Source of the DNA: Eledone cirrhosa
Lineage: Eukaryota
NCBI GenBank assembly: GCA_964016885.1
Contig: OZ024756.1
Span: 11,904,001 to 11,968,000 of the forward strand
Length of the DNA: 64,000 nt
Direction: 5' to 3'
A model generated the notes under the pieces. That model did not search any database, was not told the origin of the DNA, and saw only the letters and a program-made list of their open reading frames with translations. The position numbers were made by a program, and so were the translations under genes. Positions 9,988-62,345 of the stretch are shown here, piece by piece; positions within the stretch are counted from its first letter, which is position 1; every line of letters starts with the position of its first letter.

Positions 9988-10336
9988 TCTATATATATAA
10001 AAGCAAGTCGGTCTGTGTGTGTGTGTGTGTCTGTCTGTGTACAAATACTAAGCTCCTTTTAACTTTTGAAGTACTAGGCCGATTTCAACCAGGTTTTGGA
10101 CAAAAAAGAATTTGAAAAAATTCGATATTGGGGCCGAAAAATGGATTTTTTGTACAAGCTACCCCATGAATTGTTTTTATGTTGCCGTTTATTTCACTCA
10201 ATCATATCACTGTACACCCATTTTGTTAAACTCTTTTTACAATTACATTTCAATTCTTTGCTCAACCTTTGGCTCACTTTATACGGATAAACAGGCTGTC
10301 ATTCATTTCCCGAACAACGCCGGGTACATCGGCTAG
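9988..10336 (+). mobile_element. Non-autonomous Helitron-like element
   Basis: 5' TCTATATATATAAAAG; 3' hairpin CCCGAACAACGCCGGG then CTAG; inserted between A and T without TSD. Confidence 0.75.
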
Positions 10337-11149
10337 TTAGAAATAAAGTAATGAAAGGTTTAATACCCAAACCTATGTTGTTTAGTAGTGTATTTAATGG
10401 CACCATTCTGATGGACAGTGTGATGCTTGTCAAAGAACTACTGTAAATTCTCAACTGTATGTGCCAGATTTCTGTACAGTTGTCTCTGTTGTAGTTATCA
10501 CAAAGTTGGAACCTTTATGTCCCTGATAGCTGCCAGATATGGGTTGGTTACAGGTGTTATGGTTCAGTCTACAGTAAAACATACGAGAAAACATTCCCAT
10601 ACATCGAACCAAAACTTATAACCTACTGTTGGGAAATATATATATATATTTAATTAGAAAGTGAACAACGCAAACTACTCCATTACCAAAGGTTTCTGGA
10701 TCACAGACGATAATAATATATGTCTGGATTGATCATCAGACAGAGATGTTATGGATAAAAAATATGAAATGAGATTTAAAATCTGTTAAAAACTATATAT
10801 ATATATATAATTAATACAATAACAGAGAAAGCTTTACGCTAAACTCCGACTGGTAACCATCTCACTCAACAAACATTAGGTTATACGTTAGTATAAACCC
10901 AATTTAGTGTCTGGGGTGCTAACTATATGTATTTTGTGGAAAGCCAGTTGTATTATTTTATACGAGATATAATTAAAATTAAAATATATCTCTCTTTCCA
11001 AACAATTGTTTCATTATAAGTATTCTACAAGTTGGGAGAATATTTCCAGTTTATGTAGAAGCCTAATATATTTTCATGTAAGAATACAATTAGGTGGGCA
11101 CTTATAAATTGTCAGTGGAAGCCCATTAAACTTTGATATATATATATAT

Positions 11150-11360
11150 GAAGTAGTTCCACAACAATTAATACACCATTTCCGAGAACAATTTGTTTCA
11201 CCTCCAACGGATCATCAGCTCAGTTTAAAATGATCCATTTCAGGTGAAACAAATTGTTCTCAGAAATGGTGTATTAGCTTTTGTGGAACTACTTCTACCA
11301 AACTCGTCCCATGGACACAGTGTTCTACTACTGCGTATATAACCCCCTAGTGTTCTAGCA
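11150..11360. mobile_element. Fold-back PLE pLTR-like element carrying a hammerhead motif
   Basis: Inverted arms ~11150-11203 and ~11242-11296 plus a 3' tail; TA tracts on both sides. Confidence 0.7.
11182..11223 (-). ncRNA. Minimal type I hammerhead ribozyme
   Basis: Minus strand: CTGAG-CTGATGA-tccgttggaggt-GAAAC-aaatt-GTT-CTCGG; stem I CTGAG/CTCGG (CTCAG in the other arm). Confidence 0.6.
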
Positions 11361-11386
11361 CTATATATATATATACACACACACAT

Positions 11387-12668: not shown

Positions 12669-13093
12669 TACATAATATATAAGATCAAAAGATGGTTAAA
12701 AGAGTTCCATGTATTTTATTATGCGCATTTCAAAAACAAATATCATCATGCAATAACATTTGTGTTTTCATCAGATAAAATAGGAAGACATGATATGAAG
12801 GTTAAAAACACTTGTGAATAGTGCAGTTTTAAATCAACATATGTTGATTTAAAACTGCACTATTCACAAGTGTTTTTTAACCTTCATATCATGTCTTCCT
12901 GTTTTATCTGATGAAAACACAAATATTATTGCATGATGATATTTGTTTTTGAAATGCGCATAATAAAATACATGGAACTCTTTTAACCATCTTTTGATCT
13001 TATATATTATGTAAACTCCAGTCCTACAAACTGTAGAGTGCTTCTTATCCTATATCTGCATTGCTTTATTGTACTACAATAAAACTCACCTCC
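12669..13093. mobile_element. Near-perfect ~345-bp palindrome plus tail (PLE pLTR-like fold-back)
   Basis: Arms 12669-12840 and 12841-13013 centred on CATATG; unique ~80-bp tail, then (TA)n. Confidence 0.85.
12902..12968 (+). ncRNA. Type I hammerhead ribozyme (mirror copy on minus strand at 12714-12780)
   Basis: TTTTAT-CTGATGA-[~16-bp stem II, GCAT loop]-GAAAT-gcgc-ATA-ATAAAA; stem I 6 bp perfect; palindromic stem III ATGCGCAT. Confidence 0.75.
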
Positions 13094-17884: not shown

Positions 17885-20780
17885 AAAAATCGAGTAAAAA
17901 ATCAGAAAACAATGACAATTAATAAGAAAAATACAACAATGAAAATTCTCCAATAGGGGGGATGACCACCCACAGTTGACTCAGGTACCCCACCAAATCT
18001 GAACCACCCGACGCTTCGAGAGCACCCAGGAAGGGCACCCCTCTCCTCCTCAAATTCACCAGCCTACAGGCGCATGATCAGAGTAGGCCCACTCACACGG
18101 GCCATTCTCGCCACATTCACCCACCTTTCAGCAAATGTACTGGGGGGACAGCACTTCTCTCTCCACCCTCACCTTCCTTCCCAAGAGAAATTTGAAAAAG
18201 TTGAAGAGGGATTGGCCGAAGTGAAAAGTGTCTGTCTTCAGTCCTTTCAGCCTGGTCCACCATACAACCTCTTTCGCTACTGCCACCAGACAAATTGCCT
18301 GCCCTTCCTGGCCAAAAGAAGGCGGCAGGTCGATCTTCACTATGGACTTGACCAATAGCCGGATCCGTTCTACACACAACAGCTGTTCGACATAACTCTG
18401 TAAGTCAGTAATGCACGGACACTGGACGATTGGGTGCAGAACGGTTTCATCACTCTGTGTGCATTTCAGGCAGGTCCGTCTGACAGCACTTCCGTACCTG
18501 TAGAGTTTATCTCAAACCGGCAGTGTGTTCCGGTAGCACTGCCAGGCGAGGGATTTCTGGCAGTTATCCATTGTCCTTGGCTCGAAAGTCCTCCGAAACA
18601 GACTGGTCAGTTCGACTTGGTCGACGTCCAGAGCTTCTCTGGGTGCATCGTTGCACTTTCCCACCACTAATCCTCTATAGAACGCAAGAGTGGAAGTTCC
18701 ACTGATTGCATTGCCTGGCAACATTCCAGATGCCAGTCACCAAGTCTTGGTCTCTTCGTGACACAGGACTGCAGCTCAGTGAAAGAGACAAGCTGCAGAA
18801 AGGCCTGTCTGACAAGCGGCAACCATAACTGTTCACCGTTTAGGCAGAATATCTGGAGCTGCCACAGCCTCAGCGCATTATTAGCCACGGCATGCCTGGC
18901 CCTCCGTGTAGAGGGTGCTGGCAGCAGATGGACCGCCTCACCAATAGAACCTGTCCCCTCCACAAGAATTTGACTAGGAGCCATTGCAACTTGACAAGAC
19001 ACAACGGTCAGGCGGAAGTAGATAACGGATGTGATGTACGCAATCGCCACCCCTACCTGACCCTTTCAGAGACAGCTTCCTCGCAGCCCATTTCTGGGTG
19101 AAACTGGCTGCCTTGCTAGTCACCTTGTCCCAATTCTTATCCACTTGGAGGTCTGGTCGGAACCAAACCCCAAGAAAACTTTATCAGTCCATCTGTCCAG
19201 TCCCAACAACGCTGTTGGATGGCATGCCCACTGACTCTTCTGGGTTAAGTTTCGCTCCTGTCAACTTTTCATATTCCTCCAATAAGGTGCCGACCACCTC
19301 GATTTCTGAGGTGGCCATTAACTTTGACCAATGGTGATGTTGTCCACATAGGTGACACAGCCTTTCTGCGTCTCGATTCAAGCGGGATGCCCTGCAACAG
19401 CTCCAGTTTCTGCAGTAAAGGCTCGAGGGTCAAAACGTACAGGGAAGAGAGAGGGCACTCTTGACGGACTGATCGGGAGACCTGAAACGGTTCCGAGAGG
19501 TGGCTATTAACTTTGACCACAGAGCAGATGCCGCTGTGCATTGCAGCGATCCAGCTTCTGAAGACGGGGCCAAAGCCAGCTGCCGTGAGGACAGCCTCCA
19601 GGTACCGATGGTCGACCCTATCGAATGCTTTCGATTGATCTAATTTGATCAAAGCCCCACCGAAGCCAGGTTTATGCCCTACCGTCTCTATGATGTATTG
19701 TTGTGTATGGACCTCGTCGGGATTGTGCAAGTTTCCACCTCTTGAAATTCGTCTTCAACCCTTTAAAAAATGTGTCCACCACAAGTCTGAAAGCATGATC
19801 TTCTCTGTTGGTCACATCCGCCACCACTAACTTACCTTATGGGTCCAGGGAGATGGTCCGTAGTGCTGGTGACATTGATGTAGGTGTTGGTAATAGTTGC
19901 CTCAAGGCTTTCGCATCCCCACCCCCACCCATTTTTAGAGGGCAAAGTCAGAGAGTTTTTTTTTTTTCTCTTTTTGTTTTGTGGACAGCATTTTACCACT
20001 CCTCACCTTCGTCGCCATTTGTATTTTGTATCCAATTGCATGATGTCAAGTTGGGGCATGTTTTCCACATGAGTTGGTATTGATGTTGATGATGGGGTTG
20101 CTTTTTCAGTCTCAGCCATGTTTGTTGCTGCTGTTCCTGCCTCTTTTTCTTGATGTCTTTGTAGATGTTTCTGCTTTTGTTGGTGCAAATTGGTTGTTAG
20201 TAGTAGTGCGGGTTTTTTGTTCCTTTGTTCTCTGTTTGAAGGGGTGTTTGCATCACAGATATAACATTGGGGCCTCCTCTCTTCCATAGCTACAAACAGC
20301 TGTGTACCATTCGGCAGTTCAATGATATCAGGAGTTCTTTCCTGATTTATTTGGAGCAAAAGCTCCATTTCAAATCCGATCCAGCTCTCCTGACATAATT
20401 GGTGAATTTGGAAGATGTTTTTGCTATCCTCTTTATCCTCCAGGATGGCCTCTACTAACCAGGAGATCTTTATCTCAGGCAGTACATTTTTTTTACCTTC
20501 ATTAAGTATTTCCCCATGTAAGTTGGGATTAGCAAAAAACTCTTGCTGTTTAAAGCGTTGATCGAGTGAGTCTTAACTTTGATTTCCAATGAGAATCCCA
20601 CTTCTATTGTCCACACCTCCTTTAAGACTTATTGAGCTTCCAGAATAGAGGGTCGCTCCGAGCGTTTATTGTACATTTCTAAACATTCAAAATAAAGGAA
20701 GATTTTTTAAATAGCAGCTGTATTAATGTATTGATTATTTTATCTACTTGTAGCTCTCTTTTTTTCTTCTTTGGAAAAAC
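17885..20780 (-). mobile_element. Degraded L1/Tx1-like LINE (RT motifs plus ORF1 remnant)
   Basis: LDQSKAFDRVDH, VRQECPLS and YVLTLEPLL in the 19269-19730 ORF; ORF1-like RRPQCYIC at 20003-20368; multiple frameshifts. Confidence 0.8.
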
Positions 20781-25094: not shown

Positions 25095-25372
25095 GTGCAC
25101 TAATGGCTGATTGAATATGCAAGTGTTTGTTTCTCAAAAAGAATGTTCCATTCCTTCCTCCTCTCTCTACCTCCTCATTCTATCTTCTGATGAAGGACTA
25201 GTGTTCGAAACATGGAGACACATTTCCTACTCTATCAAGCATTAAACTAATATATTTCTTCATTGTACTGTGTTGTTTGCCTTATTTCTGTTTACTTTTT
25301 ACACACACACACACACCCACACACATATATATATATTGTTATACTTTGTGTGTGTGTGTGTGTGTGCGTGCG

Positions 25373-25881: not shown

Positions 25882-26216
25882 TCATCATCATCATTTTACG
25901 CCTGCTTTTCCGTGCTTGCAAGGGTGGGACAGGAACTGATTCTGGCTTGATTTCTACAACTGGATGCCCTTCCTAACACGAACCTCATTTACAGTGAGTG
26001 CTGGGTGCCTTTTTTCCGTGGCGTCTACACGTCCACTTTACAGTGGAATGATATGGACCCCAGTCCCTATCATCTCATTTCTACAGCTGAGTAAACTGGA
26101 GCAATGTGAAATAAAGTGTCTTGCTCAAGGAAACAACACATCACCTGGTCTGAGAATTGAACTCACAACCTTTCGGTTGCAAACCCAATGCTCTAACCAC
26201 TAAGCCATGTACCTGC

Positions 26217-26217: not shown

Positions 26218-26305
<88 letters not shown>

Positions 26306-26313
<8 letters not shown>

Positions 26314-28550
26314 TTGGAATAAATGCTCTGAAATAGCGATATATATGTGAATATAGACATAGAATATTCGAAAATATTCTGTATGTTTATAATAAACATT
26401 TTGAAGACCTAATCGCTATAGAATAGAATACGTCACGTATTACAATTAGATTCTCGATAAAAGCAAGGGAAGTAATCTACGCGTTTCATTCTCGTTAGAA
26501 ATCATCAGGACTACATATCCGGTGCTTTTATCGAGAATGACACAGCTAGAGACTTATAGAATACTTAGCTGTGTACAGGAACTGGTTTGAAAGAGCGGTT
26601 GCCGGTCCGGCAGAAATTAGAAATTGGAATAAATGCTCTGAAATAGCGATATATATGTGAATATAGACATAGAATATTCGAAAATATTCTGTATGTTTAT
26701 AATAAACATTTTGAAGACCTAATCGCTATAGAATAGAATACGTCACGTATTACAATTAGATTCTCGATAAAAGCAAGGGAAGTAATCTACGCGTTTCATT
26801 CTCGTTAGAAATCATCAGGACTACATATCCGGTGCTTTTATCGAGAATGACACAGCTAGAGACTTATAGAATACTTAGCTGTGTACAGGAACTGGTTTGA
26901 AAGAGCGGTTGCCGGTCCGGCAGAAATTAGAAATTGGAATAAATGCTCTGAAATAGCGATATATATGTGAATATAGACATAGAATATTCGAAAATATTCT
27001 GTATGTTTATAATAAACATTTTGAAGACCTAATCGCTATAGAATAGAATACGTCACGTATTACAATTAGATTCTCGATAAAAGCAAGGGAAGTAATCTAC
27101 GCGTTTCATTCTCGTTAGAAATCATCAGGACTACATATCCGGTGCTTTTATCGAGAATGACACAGCTAGAGACTTATAGAATACTTAGCTGTGTACAGGA
27201 ACTGGTTTGAAAGAGCGGTTGCCGGTCCGGCAGAAATTAGAAATTGGAATAAATGCTCTGAAATAGCGATATATATGTGAATATAGACATAGAATATTCG
27301 AAAATATTCTGTATGTTTATAATAAACATTTTGAAGACCTAATCGCTATAGAATAGAATACGTCACGTATTACAATTAGATTCTCGATAAAAGCAAGGGA
27401 AGTAATCTACGCGTTTCATTCTCGTTAGAAATCATCAGGACTACATATCCGGTGCTTTTATCGAGAATGACACAGCTAGAGACTTATAGAATACTTAGCT
27501 GTGTACAGGAACTGGTTTGAAAGAGCGGTTGCCGGTTCGGCAGAAATTAGAAATTGGAATAAATGCTCTGAAATAGCGATATATATGTGAATATAGACAT
27601 AGAATATTCGAAAATATTCTGTATGTTTATAATAAACATTTTGAAGACCTAATCGCTATAGAATAGAATACGTCACGTATTACAATTAGATTCTCGATAA
27701 AAGCAAGGGAAGTAATCTACGCGTTTCATTCTCGTTAGAAATCATCAGGACTACATATCCGGTGCTTTTATCGAGAATGACACAGCTAGAGACTTATAGA
27801 ATACTTAGCTGTGTACAGGAACTGGTTTGAAAGAGCGGTTGCCGGTCCGGCAGAAATTAGAAATTGGAATAAATGCTCTGAAATAGCGATATATATGTGA
27901 ATATAGACATAGAATATTCGAAAATATTCTGTATGTTTATAATAAACATTTTGAAGACCTAATCGCTATAGAATAGAATACGTCACGTATTACAATTAGA
28001 TTCTCGATAAAAGCAAGGGAAGTAATCTACGCGTTTCATTCTCGTTAGAAATCATCAGGACTACATATCCGGTGCTTTTATCGAGAATGACACAGCTAGA
28101 GACTTATAGAATACTTAGCTGTGTACAGGAACTGGTTTGAAAGAGCGGTTGCCGGTCCGGCAGAAATTAGAAATTGGAATAAATGCTCTGAAATAGCGAT
28201 ATATATGTGAATATAGACATAGAATATTCGAAAATATTCTGTATGTTTATAATAAACATTTTGAAGACCTAATCGCTATAGAATAGAATACGTCACGTAT
28301 TACAATTAGATTCTCGATAAAAGCAAGGGAAGTAATCTACGCGTTTCATTCTCGTTAGAAATCATCAGGACTACATATCCGGTGCTTTTATCGAGAATGA
28401 CACAGCTAGAGACTTATAGAATACTTAGCTGTGTACAGGAACTGGTTTGAAAGAGCGGTTGCCGGTCCGGCAGAAATTAGAAATTGGAATAAATGCTCTG
28501 AAATAGCGATATATATGTGAATATAAACATAGAATATTCGAAAATATTCT
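26306..28550 (-). repeat. 310-bp retrozyme-like tandem array, 7.2 units (hammerhead on minus strand)
   Basis: Exact 310-bp period; HHR at 26472-26514 and every +310 up to 28332-28374. Confidence 0.9.
26472..26514 (-). ncRNA. Type I hammerhead ribozyme (first of 7 minus-strand copies)
   Basis: GTAGTC-CTGATGA-tTTCTaacgAGAAt-GAAAC-gc-GTA-GATTAC; stem I 6 bp; palindromic stem III ACGCGT; GUA cleavage triplet. Confidence 0.8.
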
Positions 28551-29686
28551 ATAAGTCTCTAGCTGTGTCATTCTCGATAAAAGCACCGGATATGTAGTCC
28601 TGATGATTTCTAACGAGAATGAAACGCGTAGATTACTTCCCTTGCTTTTATCGAGAATCTAATTGTAATACGTGACGTATTCTATTCTATAGCGATTAGG
28701 TCTTCAAAATGTTTATTATAAACATACAGAATATTTTCGAATATTCTATGTCTATATTCACATATATATCGCTATTTCAGAGCATTTATTCCAATTTCTA
28801 ATTTCTGCCGGACCGGCAACCGCTCTTTCAAACCAGTTCCTGTACACAGCTAAGTATTCTATAAGTCTCTAGCTGTGTCATTCTCGATAAAAGCACCGGA
28901 TATGTAGTCCTGATGATTTCTAACGAGAATGAAACGCGTAGATTACTTCCCTTGCTTTTATCGAGAATCTAATTGTAATACGTGACGTATTCTATTCTAT
29001 AGCGATTAGGTCTTCAAAATGTTTATTATAAACATACAGAATATTTTCGAATATTCTATGTCTATATTCACATATATATCGCTATTTCAGAGCATTTATT
29101 CCAATTTCTAATTTCTGCCGGACCGGCAACCGCTCTTTCAAACCAGTTCCTGTACACAGCTAAGTATTCTATAAGTCTCTAGCTGTGTCATTCTCGATAA
29201 AAGCACCGGATATGTAGTCCTGATGATTTCTAACGAGAATGAAACGCGTAGATTACTTCCCTTGCTTTTATCGAGAATCTAATTGTAATACGTGACATAT
29301 TCTATTCTATAGCGATTAGGTCTTCAAAATGTTTATTATAAACATACAGAATATTTTCGAATATTCTATGTCTATATTCACATATATATCGCTATTTCAG
29401 AGCATTTATTCCAATTTCTAATTTCTGCCGGACCGGCAACCGCTCTTTCAAACCAGTTCCTGTACACAGCTAAGTATTCTATAAGTCTCTAGCTGTGTCA
29501 TTCTCGATAAAAGCACCGGATATGTAGTCCTGATGATTTCTAACGAGAATGAAACGCGTAGATTACTTCCCTTGCTTTTATCGAGAATCTAATTGTAATA
29601 CGTGACGTATTCTATTCTATAGCGATTAGGTCTTCAAAATGTTTATTATAAACATACAGAATATTTTCGAATATTCTATGTCTATA

Positions 29687-29690
<4 letters not shown>
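28545..29690 (+). repeat. Inverted continuation of the 310-bp array, 3.7 units
   Basis: Reverse complement of the left array; the junction shares TATTCT (28545-28550). Confidence 0.9.
28594..28636 (+). ncRNA. Type I hammerhead ribozyme (first of 4 plus-strand copies; others start at 28904, 29214, 29524)
   Basis: GTAGTCCTGATGATTTCTAACGAGAATGAAACGCGTAGATTAC reads directly on the + strand. Confidence 0.8.
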
Positions 29691-29734
<44 letters not shown>

Positions 29735-30149
29735 TGTATTTGTGTACAGATATTTTTGCATACACAATAACAAAATATAAACAAACGTATTTATTCCACG
29801 AGGCTCGATAAGGATAAATATATATCAAATATTTAAGAACCCTAGAGCAAATCCCGGGCAACGCCGGGCCATTCTGCTAGTATATAATACAATACAATTT
29901 AATGTATTTCATTTAAGTGACAATGAACTGTACATGCCCTCTCACCACATTGCAGGCCCCACCCCATTTAGGGGTCTTCCCATTGAATCTTCTTCAATTG
30001 TTGGCAAAACTTACCATGAACTTTTGCATAATTCCTTATAATGTTATTTGTGAGAAGAACAGAGAGAGAGACAGACAGACAGGTGGATGGCTGGATGCAT
30101 GAAATCAGATGACACACTCTCACGCACGCCTCTACATATGTATATATGG

Positions 30150-31004: not shown

Positions 31005-31543
31005 GGAGGCACGTGGCTTAGTGGTTAGAGCATTCGGCTTGCAATCGAAAGGTTGTGAGTTCAATTCCCAGACCGGGTGATGTGTTGTTTCCTTGAGCAA
31101 GACACTTTATTTCACATTGCTCCAGTTTACTCAGATGTAGAAATGAGATGATAGGACTGGGGTCCCCTATCATTCCACTGCAAAGTGGTCGTGGAGGTGC
31201 CACGGCAAAAAAAAAAAGCACCCAGCCCACTGTAAAGTGGACGTGTAGGTGCCATGGAAAAAAAAGCACCCAGCCCACACTGTAAAGTGGACGTGTAGGC
31301 GCCACGGAAAAAAAAGCACCCAACCCACACAGTAAAGTGGTCGTGGAGGCGCCACGGAAAAAAAAGCACCCAACCCACACAGTAAAGTGGACGTGGAGGC
31401 GCCACGGAAAAAAAAGTACCCAGCACTCACTGTAAATGAGGTTGGTGTTAGGAAGGGCATCCAGCTGAATAAATCAAGCCAGAATCAGTTCCCGTCCCAC
31501 CCTTGCAAGCAGGGAAAAGTGGACGTAAAAGTATGATGATGAT
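31005..31543 (+). mobile_element. SINE family A copy with an internal ~60-bp tandem expansion
   Basis: tRNA head and tail intact; four copies of AAAGTGGxCGTGGAGG...AAAGCACCCAGC at ~31180-31430. Confidence 0.9.
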
Positions 31544-37340: not shown

Positions 37341-37538
37341 TATATATATGTATATATATATATATGTTAAAATAACAGATTAAAGTTTAAGCAAAGAATC
37401 ACTGCTTGAGAATTCTTTGCTTAAACTTTAATCTGTTATTTTAATAAATATTTGCTCTTAGGGTTCTTATATATTTGATATATATTTATCCTTATCGAGC
37501 CCTCTTTGGATTTCAGTCTTCTTCGCATTTATTATTAT

Positions 37539-37580
<42 letters not shown>

Positions 37581-37589
<9 letters not shown>

Positions 37590-38051
37590 TAAACAAATAA
37601 TGAATAAACAATTCCTTATATTAAACAAAAAAAGTTCATTATTTAACGATCGTTTCTAGGATATATATGTGTTAGAATTGGTATGCATATTCAACAGATC
37701 TATGTACAAAATTAATTATTTCTGAAGACGGCGTATATATGTGTTTGGTATGTATATTTAATCTTGATAATTTGTATAATTTTGTATAATTTTGTACATA
37801 GATCTGTTGAATATGCATACCAATTCTAACACATATATATCCTAGAAACGATCGTTAAATAATGAACTTTTTTTGTTTAATATAAGGAATTGTTTATTCA
37901 TTATTTGTTTAATATTTTATCTTGACTCTGTATACCGTTTATCTTTCACCGAAAGTGGTTTTTCATTACATCTCTTCTTTCCATGATATCCGGAATACAT
38001 TGAGTTCTTCATACGGATTGGACACTACCGTAAACTCTTGGTAGATTTATC

Positions 38052-42662: not shown

Positions 42663-42997
42663 GGAGGCACATGGCTTAGTGGTTAGAGCATTGGGCTTGC
42701 AATCGAAAGGTTGTGAGTTCAATTCTCAGACCGGGTGGTGTGTTGTTTCCTTGAGCAAGACACTTTATTTCATATTGCTCCAGTTTACTCAGCTGTAGAA
42801 ATGAGATGATAGGGACTGGGGTCCATATCATTCCACTGCAAAGTGGTCGTGGAGGTGCCACGGCAAAAAAAAGCACCCGGCACTCACTGTAAATGAGGTT
42901 GGTGTTAGGAAGGCCATCCAGCTGTAGAAATCAAGCTAGAATCAGTTCCCGCCCCACCCTTGCAAGCAGGGAAAAGCGGACGTAAAATGATGATGAT
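42663..42997 (+). mobile_element. SINE family A copy
   Basis: Full head, body and (GAT)n tail. Confidence 0.9.
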
Positions 42998-43432
42998 GCT
43001 ATATATATATATGTGTGTATGTGTGTGTGTCTAGGTTTCGTTGTATAGACAGGAGAGACAAAACATTACAGGAGTGCAGTTTCTATATATTTTATCCTAC
43101 CAAGCTTTTCCAGTGACACAAATTTTGAAGCTCTTAACCACACACATGTGTGTTTTGTTTTTTTTTCTCAACTTTTTTCCCCATTCCTCCCTCTTCCCAC
43201 TCTATCTTTCTATTTTATCTTTTATTTTACATTCTATCTTCCTCTTATTTCAAGTGTTAAACTAATATATTTCTTCATTGTACTGTGTTGTTTATTTTGT
43301 TTTTCTCTGTATGGCATGAAGGACATAGGACCATCAAGACGGCTAGACGTAGATGGACTGGCGATGTCTCAGTTTATATATATATATATAATAACAGGAG
43401 GCTGGACTGGTGTAATTCCTTAAAGGTTTATT

Positions 43433-43490
43433 ATACTATGAACATTTCAATGACCGGGTTCAGTATGAATCCGGTGACATCATCAGGTAT
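43433..43490 (-). ncRNA. Type I hammerhead candidate
   Basis: Minus strand: ATAC-CTGATGA-tgtcaCCGGaTTCAtacTGAAcCCGGtcatt-GAAAT-gttc-ATA-GTAT; lies between TA tracts. Confidence 0.55.
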
Positions 43491-43587
43491 TCGAAATATA
43501 ATCCATGGGGCTGAAAAGCAGAGAGACAAGAAGGTGGCCAAACATTTAGCAGTTTCTAGTCCGGTCTGCCACCTTCAAACTTAAATG

Positions 43588-44740: not shown

Positions 44741-44814
44741 TATATTATTTGTTTATGTTCTTAAGCTGAACAACAAAAAGTGCTACCTAACTTTTCAACA
44801 CTTCCTACAGCAAG

Positions 44815-45545
44815 AATATGCATATGCCCATGTTCGATATGTAGAAAAGGAGTTGGCATAAACTCTATAGAATGTACACAATGCAGATCTTGGGTGCTCA
44901 AGAGATGTAGTGGGATAACAGGCAAACTAACAGGAAGGGAAAACTACATATGTGGTAGATGTTCAGGAAAATTTGACAGTAGAAGTGTCAGTGATAAGCA
45001 CATTTTTCAAATGCAGGTAGGATCTATAGAGGTGGTTGATAGCTTCCAATACCTAGGTGATCAGATTAACAAGGAAGGAGGGTGCTCTGAGGCCATAGTT
45101 TCTAGATTAAAGACAGGTTGGAAGAAGTTTAGGGAGCTGCTTCCTCTGTTGACCACAAAGGATTTCTCCCTATGAACAAAAGGCTGGTTATATGATGCCT
45201 GTGTGAGATGCGTGATGCTGCATGGTAGTGAGACATGGGCAGCAACTGCAGAGGATATGCGACAGCTAGAGAGAAATAACGCAAGCAGGCTCCGATGGAT
45301 GTGCAATGTCAATGTGCGTGAACGACCAAGCATGGACGAGTTGAGAGTGAAACTGTATAAGAGGGATAAGTTGTAGAGTGTGGGAGAGAAGGCTACATTA
45401 GTATGGCTATGTGATGCGCACGGAGGATGACCGCTGCGTAAGAAGTGCCAAGAAATCCCAGTGAAAGGAAGATGCAGTTGAGTGAGGAAGACCACAAAAA
45501 ACATGGGCGGAGGTGATGAGAGCTGACCTCAGATCGCTGAAGAGG
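44815..45545 (+). mobile_element. RTE-clade LINE fragment with a Cys-rich (PHD-like) segment
   Basis: CSICRKGVGINSIECTQCRSWVLKRCSG...CGRC, EVVDSFQYLGDQI, GWKKFRELLPLL; stops downstream. Confidence 0.85.
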
Positions 45546-45619: not shown

Positions 45620-46930
45620 CTGTTCCAGCCATCCGGCTGAGGCCATGCTGGGGCACCACCTTTGTTGCTACACATTCTATCTCCAGCCTGTGTTGGCTGG
45701 CCATTGCATTGGTGTGAGAGGGAGTTCGTTGCTGCTGCCCTTAGGTTACCTTTGTACCCTGCTGTGGGCTCATCCATGATCCTGGATAGCAGGGTGTCAA
45801 GATGTTTCTTGAAAACATCCACGTCCACACCATGCAGATCTCTCAAATTTCTTGGCAGCTTGTAGGAGAGTTGAGGGCCTTTGAACCCCAGGCTATTACA
45901 ATATCTGCTCCTTATTCTAGATGTGGAAGATAGGACCTTTGGCACCATTCAGTGACGTCCCGTTCAGGGCTTGGTCCAGCTCCCACTGCCAAACTTTGGT
46001 GCTAGTCCCTCCAGGATTTTCCATATGTATATCACTGCGTATCTCTCCTGTCTTAGTTCCAAGGAGTAGGTTCAGTTCTTTTAGCCTCTCCCAGTAGCTT
46101 ATCTCTTTTATCATGGCAATTCTCTTGGTGTAACTTCAATGGATTGCCTCAAGCTCCGTGGTTAGTTTTATACTATGGGATAACCACAGCTGGGAGCAGT
46201 AATCCAGGTGGCTTAGGACAAATGTCCTCCATAGTGTCAACATGGTCTCTCGGTCTCTTGTCCGGAAAGTCCTCAAGATCCAGCCAGCAAGTTGTCTGCA
46301 CATTGTCACCACCCTCATGATGTGTGAAGAAAAAGATGTATCATCGCTCATGTCTATCCCCAGGTCTCGTATCGATTTCGACACAGGGATTTTGTTCCCT
46401 CCTGGTCTAGTATAGCTGTGTTGTATTGTTTTTGTGTTTGCAGATTGGTATTGTAGGGCTTGAAATTTTGCAGCATTAAACTGCATGTTGTTGTCCTCAG
46501 CCCATTTGTATATGGCATCCAGATCTTGTAAAAGGGCAGCATCAACCAGGTTTTTGATTGCCTGTGCTACCTTTGTGTCATCAGCATAGTTAGTGAGGGA
46601 TATTGTATGTACTACAGAGGGCATGTCTGAGAGAACCATCAAAAACAGTAGTGGTCCCACGACTGTGCCCTGGGGCACTCTACTTATTGATGTTTCCTTT
46701 GAGAGAGTCCCATTGCTGCAACAGGCTAGCTTCTGTCTTTTAAGAAGTCATGCAGCCACTCACCAACTTTTCCAGTCATGCCAAGTCTGTGTAGTTTGTA
46801 ACATATCATTCCATGGTCGACCTTGTCAAAGGCCTTCACAAAGTCAAGATATATCACATCCACATCTGAGCTGTCTAGTAGTTGTTTCAGTACCCAGTCA
46901 GAGTGTTGTAACAGCTGTGTAAGGCAGCTT
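45620..46930 (-). mobile_element. CR1/Jockey-group LINE RT fragment
   Basis: PQGTVVGPLLFL, YADDTK, IRDLGI, HLDYCSQLW, FKKHLD; frameshifted. Confidence 0.88.
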
Positions 46931-51632: not shown

Positions 51633-51668
<36 letters not shown>

Positions 51669-51675
<7 letters not shown>

Positions 51676-51872
51676 ATATTCAGGACCCCGACAGCTGAGC
51701 TCCGGTCATTTCGACAGCTAGATCTGAACTCAGTTCGGATCTAGCTGTCGAAACGGCTAGAGCTCAGCCATCAGGGTTCTGAATTTTTTCATATTACCCA
51801 ATCTTCTACCCTAGGTATTAAGTACTCTGGTGGGTTATGGTCTAGTTGGTTTTTACCACATCCTATCTGATG
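51669..51872. mobile_element. Mini fold-back derived from a relative of the 40-kb PLE pLTR
   Basis: Arms ~51669-51730 and ~51733-51793 with GTCGAAACGGCTAGAGCTCAGC; tail similar to the reverse complement of 39990-40060. Confidence 0.75.
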
Positions 51873-52543
51873 TATATATACTCACTGTAAATGAGGTTGG
51901 TGTTAGGAAGGACATCCAGCTGTAGAAATCAAGCCAAAATCAGTTCCGTATGTGCAAGACAAGGTCATCCGACCTCGCATTGATCACAACAGGACAACCC
52001 GTCTAACCCATGCTAGCATGGAAGAACAGCTGTAAAACGGGGATGATGATGATATATGTATATATATATATGTGTATATATATATGTGTATATATATCAT
52101 CATCATCATCATCATCATCAACGTTTAACGTCCGTGTTCCACGCTTGCATGGGTTTGGACGGGGGTAGTCCCACTTGAGGCAAGAGTGATTGTCTTGCTC
52201 GCATAGGACAGTCTGGCAGGTTTTCTACAGTTGGATGCCCTTCCTAACACCAACCACATTTACAGTGTGGGTCTGGGAGGTTTTTACCGTGTTGCCTACA
52301 CGGCCACATTACAGCGTGGACTGTGTGTTTTTTGTCGTGACACCTACACGATCTCATTTGTTTCGGCCTGGATGGCGCGGCACCAACATAACTTTACATA
52401 GAACGGGGTGGTGTGGATGGGGTGGGGGGGGTGGCGGGACGGGGTGTATTTAGTTAGAGATGCCTACTGGCAAGGCGGGTCTTCTCTGTTACTGAGTACC
52501 GCCAAAGGTCACGGTCCAGTGACATTGTCTTGGAGAGGTGTAA

Positions 52544-56400: not shown

Positions 56401-56588
56401 AAAATAATTAAGTTAAATATGTGAAATTTGGCTTCGTTTATTATAAATTATAGATATACTTCTATACAACCAACATATACTCAAAATTTATATATATATA
56501 TATATATATATAGCATATATGTATATATATGTATAAGTATATGTATATCTATATATATGCATATGTGTATATATATAGTATATATATA

Positions 56589-56630
<42 letters not shown>

Positions 56631-56789
56631 TATATAGTATATATATATATATATATACTGCTATACAACCAACATATACTCAAAATTTATATATATATAT
56701 AAATTTTGAGTATATGCTGGTTGTATAGCAGTATATCTATAATTTATAATAAACGAAGCCAAATTTTACATATTTGACTTAATTATTTT
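56401..56789. repeat. ~90-bp inverted repeat enclosing TA tracts
   Basis: 56401-56490 versus 56700-56789, with an extra partial arm at ~56655-56690. Confidence 0.75.
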
Positions 56790-57385
56790 GATAAAATAAA
56801 GTACCAGTAATGTACTGGTTAATTGCTGGCCTTGTGCCAAAAGTAGAAACAATTATTTTATATATGTGTGTGTGAAAAATGGACATAAGATAAAGGTGAT
56901 GATGATATATGTATATATACACAAATATGTGTGTGTTAGTTTGGTACCACAAAACATCCACCCCACTCTGTAAAGTGGTCATGTAGGTGTCACAAGAAAA
57001 AGCACCCACCACACACTGTAAATATGGTTGGCGTTAGGAAGGGCAGCCAGCCGTAGAAAACCAGTCAGAAACAGTCCTATATGAGTGAGACATGGTCACC
57101 CGACCCAACTTGCTTCTAATTGGGACAAACCCATCTAACCCATGCTAGCGTGGAAAATGGCCATTAGATGATGATGATATATATATATATATATATATAT
57201 ATCATCATCATCATCATCATCATCATTTCATTTTACGTCCGCTTTTTCCCTGCTTGCAAGGGTGAGACGGTAACTGATTCTGGCTTGGTTTCTACAGCTG
57301 GATGCCCTTCCTAACACCAACCTCATTTACAGTGAGTACTGGGTGCTTTTTTGCCATGGCACCTCCACGACCACTTTGCATATTT

Positions 57386-57626: not shown

Positions 57627-58247
<621 letters not shown>

Positions 58248-60782: not shown

Positions 60783-61894
60783 TATATAAATAAAATTAGG
60801 AGACAGTTGTAGTTTGCTTGAAGCATTGTGTTTGGTGTAGAAAATGATGAAGTTTGAAGGCCACAACAGTTTGAAATAGACAAACAAGATGTTATTTATT
60901 TATCTGTCCCAATATTTCAAGATAAAATCACTTCTTCTAAAAAGAAGAGATTTTATTTTGAAATATCAGGACAGATAAATAACATCTTGTTTCATCTAAG
61001 CTTCTTATTAGTCCATTTCGCATTGTCGTCACTTTCAAACTTCACATCATTTTCTATATATAAAATTACTTGAGTGTGATTTCACATGACAGAAGAATGA
61101 ATCCTCAGTATGTAAACATAATTTATATGCCATTAGTTGGAGTTTCTAGGTTCTAGTAGTTTGATAGTCTTCATTAACAAAGGCATTTATTCTCCATTAT
61201 CAGATGCGTATATGGCCTGCAAACACTAATGATTACTGCTGATGATTGGAGAACAATATACGTCTTTGTCAACAAACACTATAAAATAACTAGTTGAATA
61301 CCACACACATACATTCAAAAGAGGGGGGTGCACAGGACAAAAACAACAGAAAGACAGACAGTCCCATCTCCTCAGTCAGCCTCTTGAAATCACTATGGTT
61401 TCAGTACATTAAGATGGAGACCATTCATTCCAATGCACATTTGGGATGTAACAAAACTGGTTGAGACAAAGACAGGACAATACAGAAATAAGATGAAAGA
61501 GTATCCCAAGTGTGTCAACTGACAAAAGAGAGAGAGAATGGTGGACGAGGGGGGGGGGGGGGGGTAGCTAAGGGAGCTAAAATATAGAAAGGTGAGAAAT
61601 AGAAAAACAGAAAAGAATATGAACTGCAGTCCAACAAAGGAGAATGACATTGAGGCGTAGAAAAGGTAAAAATGGAGAATAGAGGAAGACAAGTGTGATG
61701 TCTATTATACAATAGTTTCAAAAAAGCCTACATGGCTAAGTCTTTAGAATATAAATTCAAAACTGGGGAACACAGGACAAAGACAATGGATAAAGAACAG
61801 AAAATGAGCAGTCATACACAGAACTACAACCATTTTCCTTGGTAAATCTGTGGTTAGCTGTGTGGGGTCCCATAACAGGATTCCCCCTATTGTC

Positions 61895-62345
61895 TCTCCA
61901 CGAGATCTCCCTCTCAATGTCTCGGCGCATGTTCACTTCTTGTCCCAGGTAGACGTATTCCTCCACCTCCTCTATTTCATCACCGCCAACCACCATTCGA
62001 CCTGTTGGTACGTTGTCGGACCGCATGAACTTCGTTTTCATGCGGTTCATCTTGAGGCCTACTGCAGAGCTTTTGATGTCGAGCTCCGTCAGCATGGTCT
62101 GAAGCTGATCCGTGGTTTCAGCAATGAGCACGATGTCATCAGCGAAACGGAGGTGGGTAAGTATCTCGCCATTGATGTTGACACCGCCTTACCAGTCAAT
62201 GCCTCTGATGATCTGCTCGAGACACGCGGAGAAAAGTTTTGGAGAGATCGTATCTCCTTGCTTCACTCCCTTCTCGACCGGCACCCGTACGAGTGATGAC
62301 AGCAGAGCTATGTCGGTGGTGCATCCGGAACTCGCCTCCCATATA
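61895..62345 (-). mobile_element. RTE (BovB/RTE-1-like) RT core fragment
   Basis: GVKQGDTISPKLF, LTHLRFADDIVL, GLKMNRMKTK, EVEEYVYLGQ; frameshifted. Confidence 0.88.

Follow-up and report, generated by a model that had tools for sequence, protein, structure and literature searches.

An inverted two-armed retrozyme array in Eledone cirrhosa with the end structure of a Penelope-like insertion

A 3385-bp block in the genome of Eledone cirrhosa consists of two arms of one 310-bp unit, inverted relative to each other and set inside a TA repeat. It was delimited by tandem-repeat and base-by-base tiling analysis of a window of 64,000 nucleotides, which is the whole stretch of DNA that was analysed. 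The block is best read, with a probability of about 0.5, as one insertion. In this reading, the protein of a Penelope-like element (PLE) would have cut (TA)n DNA and used each of the two DNA ends as a primer to reverse-transcribe unit RNA that was probably circular.

The 310-bp unit is, by its sequence features, a metazoan non-LTR retrozyme with predicted ribozyme cleavage. Such retrozymes are described as tandem non-coding units of 150-450 bp with a GC content below 50%, one type I hammerhead per unit and no LTRs (PMC7229834; bioRxiv 10.64898/2026.07.22.740005), and the present unit is like them in these respects. Its GC content is 34.8%. Once circularised, it is non-coding, with a longest ATG open reading frame of 30 amino acids and a longest stop-free frame of 59. 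No open reading frame of at least 120 amino acids occurs within 26219-29730. An autonomous PLE is rejected because the block is without an open reading frame.

The predicted hammerhead is laid out here for the first copy of the right arm. Stem I (GUAGUC/GAUUAC) lies within a longer rod, and the core CUGAUGA occupies 28600-28606. Stem II has 4 bp with a U-U pair at its base, and the GAAA is at 28621-28624. Stem III is 1 bp long, with the palindromic ACGCGU at 28624-28629, and the cut is predicted after 28630. Intact cores are present in all 11 full units by motif match. The motif was found by eye and by folding; Rfam did not detect a hammerhead at the gathering threshold or at E values up to 10.

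The circular monomer has a predicted fold of -67.7 kcal/mol (z = -4.1 against 60 shuffles). The hammerhead fold of the monomer is predicted at +2.1 kcal/mol, and an intermolecular stem III duplex through ACGCGU at -7.5 kcal/mol. Axolotl motifs with a weak 1-bp stem III and a palindromic loop are poor self-cleavers as monomers but efficient ones as dimers (PMC7229834). A weak lone hammerhead would leave a circle intact, while multimers would be cut as dimers, a combination that would favour stable circles over long uncut multimers.

The coordinates of the arms and of the other features are collected in Table 1. The left arm begins at unit position 1, runs through seven full units and continues to position 75. 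In the right arm the unit is reverse-complemented and runs from position 258 down to position 43 at 29690. Tandem Repeats Finder places the two arrays at 26306-28550 and 28545-29699; it is the tiling that stops the right arm at 29690. The inverted arms are 1158 nt long with 100% identity (rounded) and a spacer of 115 nt. Elsewhere in the 64-kb window there is no further copy of the unit.

Table 1. Features of the two-armed block and of its surroundings in the window
Feature	Position	Strand	Remark
Left (TA)44 tract	26219-26307		likely part of the target site
Tail at the left end only, unit positions 1-42	26306-26347	-	missing from the terminal right unit
Left arm	26306-28550	-	7.24 head-to-tail 310-bp units, ribozyme sense on the - strand
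Left-arm cores (n=7)	5' ends 28374, 28064, 27754, 27444, 27134, 26824, 26514	-	
Junction hairpin, perfect 10-bp stem	28529-28552	+	8 bp from the unit's own hairpin, plus 2 bp
Microhomology TATTCT, 6 bp, common to both arms	28545-28550		unit positions 70-75 (left), 258-253 (right)
Right arm	28545-29690	+	3.70 units, ribozyme sense on the + strand
Predicted type I hammerhead, first right-arm copy	28594-28636	+	core letters and folding
Right-arm cores (n=4)	28594, 28904, 29214, 29524	+	
Right (AT)20 tract	29690-29730		likely part of the target site
Near-perfect fold-back, 345 bp	12669-13013		outward CTGANGA cores in both arms; 83-nt one-sided extension to TA
Near-perfect fold-back, 388 bp	57773-58160		outward CTGANGA cores in both arms; 86-nt one-sided extension to TA
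Palindromes, one arm ending at (TA)n, the other continuing	11150-11361, 37360-37451, 37581-37920, 51668-51794, 56401-56789, 60838-61056		arms 71-87% alike
RVT_1 fragments and PHD-like frame	46139-46747 (-), 61760-62188 (-), 19272-19754 (-), 44765-45172 (+)		Pfam; likely decayed LINEs

Only three single-base differences are found in the whole block, at 27537, 28526 and 29297, and each is private to one unit. Because all three are unshared between units, no unit was duplicated after these variants arose.

The original prediction, made from the sequence before this analysis, held that the array inverts at a shared TATTCT. Tiling bears this out, as the left and the right register each break at the first base beyond the motif. 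The microhomology exceeds chance: among all 310x310 self-joins of the unit, 0.34% of inverted joins fall in a homology run of at least 6 nt (P about 0.003). A hairpin does adjoin the inversion, at 28531-28550 (AGAATATT-cgaa-AATATTCT). The motif had been placed just after this hairpin; instead, it forms the end of the hairpin's 3' arm. A bulged version of the hairpin, in the RNA sense, stops 9 nt before the end site of the right arm. Near the long (left) end, folding predicts just 3-bp stems, and a hairpin was found beside the short end alone.

The ribozyme sense is directed outward on both arms, again as foreseen, with seven cores on the minus strand to the left and four on the plus strand to the right. 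The sense 3' sides consequently lie at both outer ends. The arms had also been proposed to form a cruciform or long double-stranded RNA. A kilobase cruciform is disfavoured by an unpaired centre of 115-121 nt and is rejected here, and long double-stranded RNA from the 1158-bp arms would require read-through transcription.

Both outer ends lie in (TA)n, and the left end alone carries a tail; the earlier description is accurate on both counts. The tail is about 42 nt long, with edges that are ambiguous by 1-2 nt against TA, which gives a range of 40-43 nt. With 29691 taken as a substitution and the join placed in the unit's own ATATATAT, the tail would measure 33 nt. The outer-end sites are 172 nt (left) and 130 nt (right) downstream of the predicted ribozyme cut, and the tail is the stretch between them. 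A target-site duplication is unreadable within (TA)n.

Both flanks of the block are interspersed repeats. The left (TA)44 tract adjoins a SINE head at 26213. The tract is likely older than the insertion, because other SINE heads, at about 42662 and 11388, likewise come after TA tracts. Rfam tRNA matches identify tRNA-derived heads of one SINE family at 26146-26213, 31012-31075 and 42672-42729, and such heads often follow TA tracts. To the right of the block, a GC-rich hairpin followed by CTAG is found at 29853-29881, with a similar one at about 10310-10338; the first resembles a Helitron-type 3' end. Inspection by eye further shows a diverged copy of the right flank, in inverted orientation, near 37452-37510.

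The asymmetry of the ends had been called PLE-style, and it matches the published footprint (PMC8557442, PMC3846280). PLE insertions are described with an inverted 5'-truncated copy, a tail of 30-40 bp at one end and a preference for (TA)n (PMC8557442). Endonuclease-bearing PLEs resemble the block in the head-to-head inverted 5' copy, the one-sided tail and the AT-rich or (TA)n target (Craig et al. 2021, PMC8557442; PMC3846280; Poseidon PAc, PMC11167929). Further likenesses to the published elements are a palindrome at the inverted junction and ends about 100-170 nt downstream of the hammerhead. Unlike PLEs, the block has no open reading frame and both of its arms are multimers of a small unit. 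Its tail of 40-43 nt is, at this one locus, at or just above the published length.

A model for how these ends could arise comes from work with purified Poseidon PLE. This enzyme cuts and extends both target strands and prefers AT-rich DNA. It starts at two internal RNA sites without target homology, and the sequence between the two sites becomes the tail (PMC11167929).

The preferred reading of the block follows the same scheme. Unit RNA would first self-cleave as a dimer via the palindromic ACGCGU and would then be ligated into a 310-nt circle. A PLE endonuclease and reverse transcriptase, acting in trans, would cut both strands of the (TA)n. cDNA synthesis would begin 172 nt past the ribozyme cut for the left DNA end and 130 nt past it for the right end, leaving the gap as the tail. 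Each cDNA would travel round the template, for 7.24 turns on the left and 3.70 turns on the right. The cDNA 3' ends would anneal via TATTCT/AGAATA, perhaps helped by the hairpin at the stop of the left cDNA, and repair would complete the second strands.

Two-ended priming fits the block because the sense 3' sides sit at both outer ends, with outward polarity. Two cDNAs, each with its own priming event and joined at TATTCT, are more likely than the single cDNA with a template switch that was first proposed. They are preferred because purified PLE extends both strands and starts at two internal sites whose spacing equals the tail.

The arms also constrain the template. The predicted cut is crossed 7 times in the left arm and 4 times in the right arm, and the inner ends lie 98 and 225 nt after it. 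Since the arms run across the cut and neither inner end coincides with it, a cut linear monomer copied in a single pass is ruled out.

Rolling reverse transcription of a circular template had been part of the original prediction. A circle is indeed favoured, and a linear uncleaved multimer fits as well. The latter is the foremost of the alternatives, although an unlikely one. Here, two-ended PLE priming would take place on an uncleaved transcript of a source array of at least 8 units. Given a homogeneous source array, this accounts for every feature of the block. In vitro, PLE used mainly unprocessed RNA, ribozyme cleavage was dispensable and ribozyme mutants inserted normally (PMC11167929); this preference favours the linear multimer and counts against the circle. 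Likewise, 8 of 9 Xenopus retrozyme dimers remained uncleaved in vitro (bioRxiv 10.64898/2026.07.22.740005). On the other side, a transcript of more than 2.2 kb would have to escape 7 or more dimer-competent ribozymes, and retrozyme RNA in the animals tested consists mostly of monomeric circles and linears (PMC7229834). The circle is favoured over the multimer because the weak lone hammerhead would spare a circle, because multimers should be cut as dimers and because circles dominate in those animals.

The simplest account of the block is a single insertion event, as originally claimed; on the evidence of one locus, later amplification is a less probable one. In that case, a short two-armed PLE-type insertion would have come first, and its arms would have grown by local tandem amplification, through slippage or unequal exchange. 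This is the model of a 2026 preprint (bioRxiv 10.64898/2026.07.22.740005). The window is rich in short two-armed palindromes from other families, and near-identical units fit recent amplification. Against this, none of the three variants is shared between units, both arms would have to expand while nearly mutation-free, and the older palindromes of the window are unexpanded. Later amplification is improbable, somewhat more so than the linear multimer.

Only slightly less probable again is a snap-back of the left-primed cDNA. After 7.24 turns, this cDNA would fold onto its own AGAATA (or onto an antisense template), copy 3.7 units and join the right TA. The left arm does stop precisely where a perfect hairpin has its foot, and each unit of this arm contains AGAATA, the nearest being 121 nt back. 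A distance of 2 nt separates the right end from the unit's own ATATATAT, which could pair with TA, and two other elements of the window are near-perfect fold-backs. Junction palindromes of PLEs have been read as a sign of self-priming (PMC3846280). However, the join is off the mirror point of the hairpin, and initiation at two sites accounts for the tail directly. In 3 of the 4 possible registers, the 27537 variant would be expected in the right arm, where it is absent; this weighs little, since the variant may be later.

Overlap assembly is not known to make a join from just 6 bp of homology, which counts against an artefact at the junction. Such an artefact would be a chimeric or fold-back read, or two opposite arrays wrongly joined, and is very improbable. 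Interspersed repeats on both flanks and the trouble that inverted PLE structures give to assemblers (PMC8557442) would allow for one. A fold-back, however, would retrace into the left flank; the end of the right arm instead falls at another position of the unit and within unrelated DNA, and a simple fold-back read is rejected. The right arm also differs from the left in 4 of 4 possible registers. Diverged palindromes nearby (arms 83-98% alike) show the same asymmetry.

These palindromes serve as an internal control. Self-comparison of the window gives 13 other local palindromes, of which 2 were set aside by eye as back-to-back SINE pairs, leaving 11. In 7 of the 11, one arm end lies at most 5 nt from a TA tract of at least 8 bp; in none are both ends so placed. 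A rough binomial P for this adjacency is 7e-6 against a null of 8.5%. The two SINE pairs, at 51883-52267 and 56969-57380, also adjoin TA (gaps of 2 and 4), so that TA adjacency alone is not diagnostic of PLEs here. Several of the palindromes have diverged arms, and for this reason they argue against a read artefact.

The two near-perfect fold-backs listed in Table 1 are likely PLE pLTR-type insertions of another family. The one at 12669-13013 is outside the 7 of 11, as its near end has no TA tract of at least 8 bp; its core has a palindromic stem III, as in the 310-nt unit. At 11150-11295 there is one hammerhead-like core on the minus strand, with a 66-nt extension. Solo hammerhead-like cores (CTGATGA...GAAA) are seen at 10650-10793, 43391-43587 and 25187-25225. 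The first two are flanked by TA tracts on both sides, one of which adjoins the 3' side in the sense direction. The solo cores are possibly 5'-truncated PLE ends.

Coding remnants were sought with Pfam in 18 of the 70 long frames of the window, with 3 RVT_1, 1 PHD and 1 zf-RVT matches. GIY-YIG was not among the matches in these 18 frames, and no PLE protein was found in them. The window is also very rich in minisatellites, with units of 24, 29, 48/49 and 28 bp in stretches of 1-4 kb.

The 310-nt unit exists outside this assembly. Among the 24 sequencing runs listed, 20 contain at least half of 36 sampled unit words (53-81%, the highest share being 0.81 of the 36 words), under 18 coded organism labels and from 17 studies (2020-2025); none of the 20 is listed as an RNA run. 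Two further runs of the sample behind the last of the 20 (X20) contain next to none of the words. The simplest guess for the spread among labels is library carry-over of a very abundant repeat; related species or diet are also possible sources. A scan of JGI metagenomes with the ribozyme core gave 0 matches.

Two of the runs (X1 and X2) yield one 340-nt contig each, the unit plus 30 letters. Both contigs, obtained from reads matched to 28424-28727, keep the plain 310-nt cycle and neither spans the junction, which could be taken to favour an artefact; however, these runs may not be from the source animal, so that their contigs do not bear on the junction. They carry T at 28587, where every unit of the block has C. 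A closed 340-nt contig fits a tandem DNA array as well as an RNA circle. In two other runs (X23 and X24, about 1.9 Gb read each), 0 reads fall on 28424-28727, a count that stands without a control stretch.

Twin priming of L1 elements, reportedly described by Ostertag and Kazazian in 2001, offers another comparison. In this process, each of the two target strands primes a cDNA, and the resulting insertion contains a 5' inversion (PMC12016303); the block, as read here, is like it in both respects. Unlike twin-primed L1 copies, the block has no poly(A) and no TTTT/A site, and both primings would be internal, about 42 nt apart on the unit. A further difference is that its arms overlap over whole units, which a single pass on monomer RNA cannot yield.

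Non-LTR retrozymes have been proposed to be mobilised by PLEs, with circles giving rise to tandem cDNA (Cervera and de la Pena 2020; Li, Clavereau and Pollet 2026). The block is unlike the retrozymes described so far in that inverted two-armed copies, tails and TA targets do not appear in the main texts of these accounts (PMC7229834; the 2026 preprint); the words "tail" and "junction" are absent from the text of the preprint. Two multi-unit retrozyme arms with PLE ends were not found in the literature searched, which consisted mainly of openly accessible main texts. The ingredients are known, namely non-LTR retrozymes, the inverted copy and tail of PLEs, and twin priming.

Two questions stated as open in the literature meet at this locus. 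One is how the tandem and inverted structures of PLEs are formed (PMC8557442). The other is whether PLE enzymes use circles as templates when they copy animal retrozymes (PMC7229834); here the arguments in the text of the 2026 preprint are limited to co-occurrence and the phylogeny of pLTRs. A retrozyme insertion with the end footprint of a PLE ties both questions together by the anatomy of the insertion, at one locus.

The predicted start sites, exactly 130 and 172 nt after the ribozyme cut, are offered for testing in vitro. Tentatively, each insertion of this type may be the fossil of a dimeric Penelope enzyme that rolled round one ribozyme-made circle from both cut ends. A single reaction would then account for three features of PLEs, namely the tail, the inverted 5' copy and the tandem pLTRs, and circular RNA would give rise to satellite-like arrays in one step. 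If this is true, the reaction could be demonstrated in vitro with the 310-nt circle as a minimal natural substrate.
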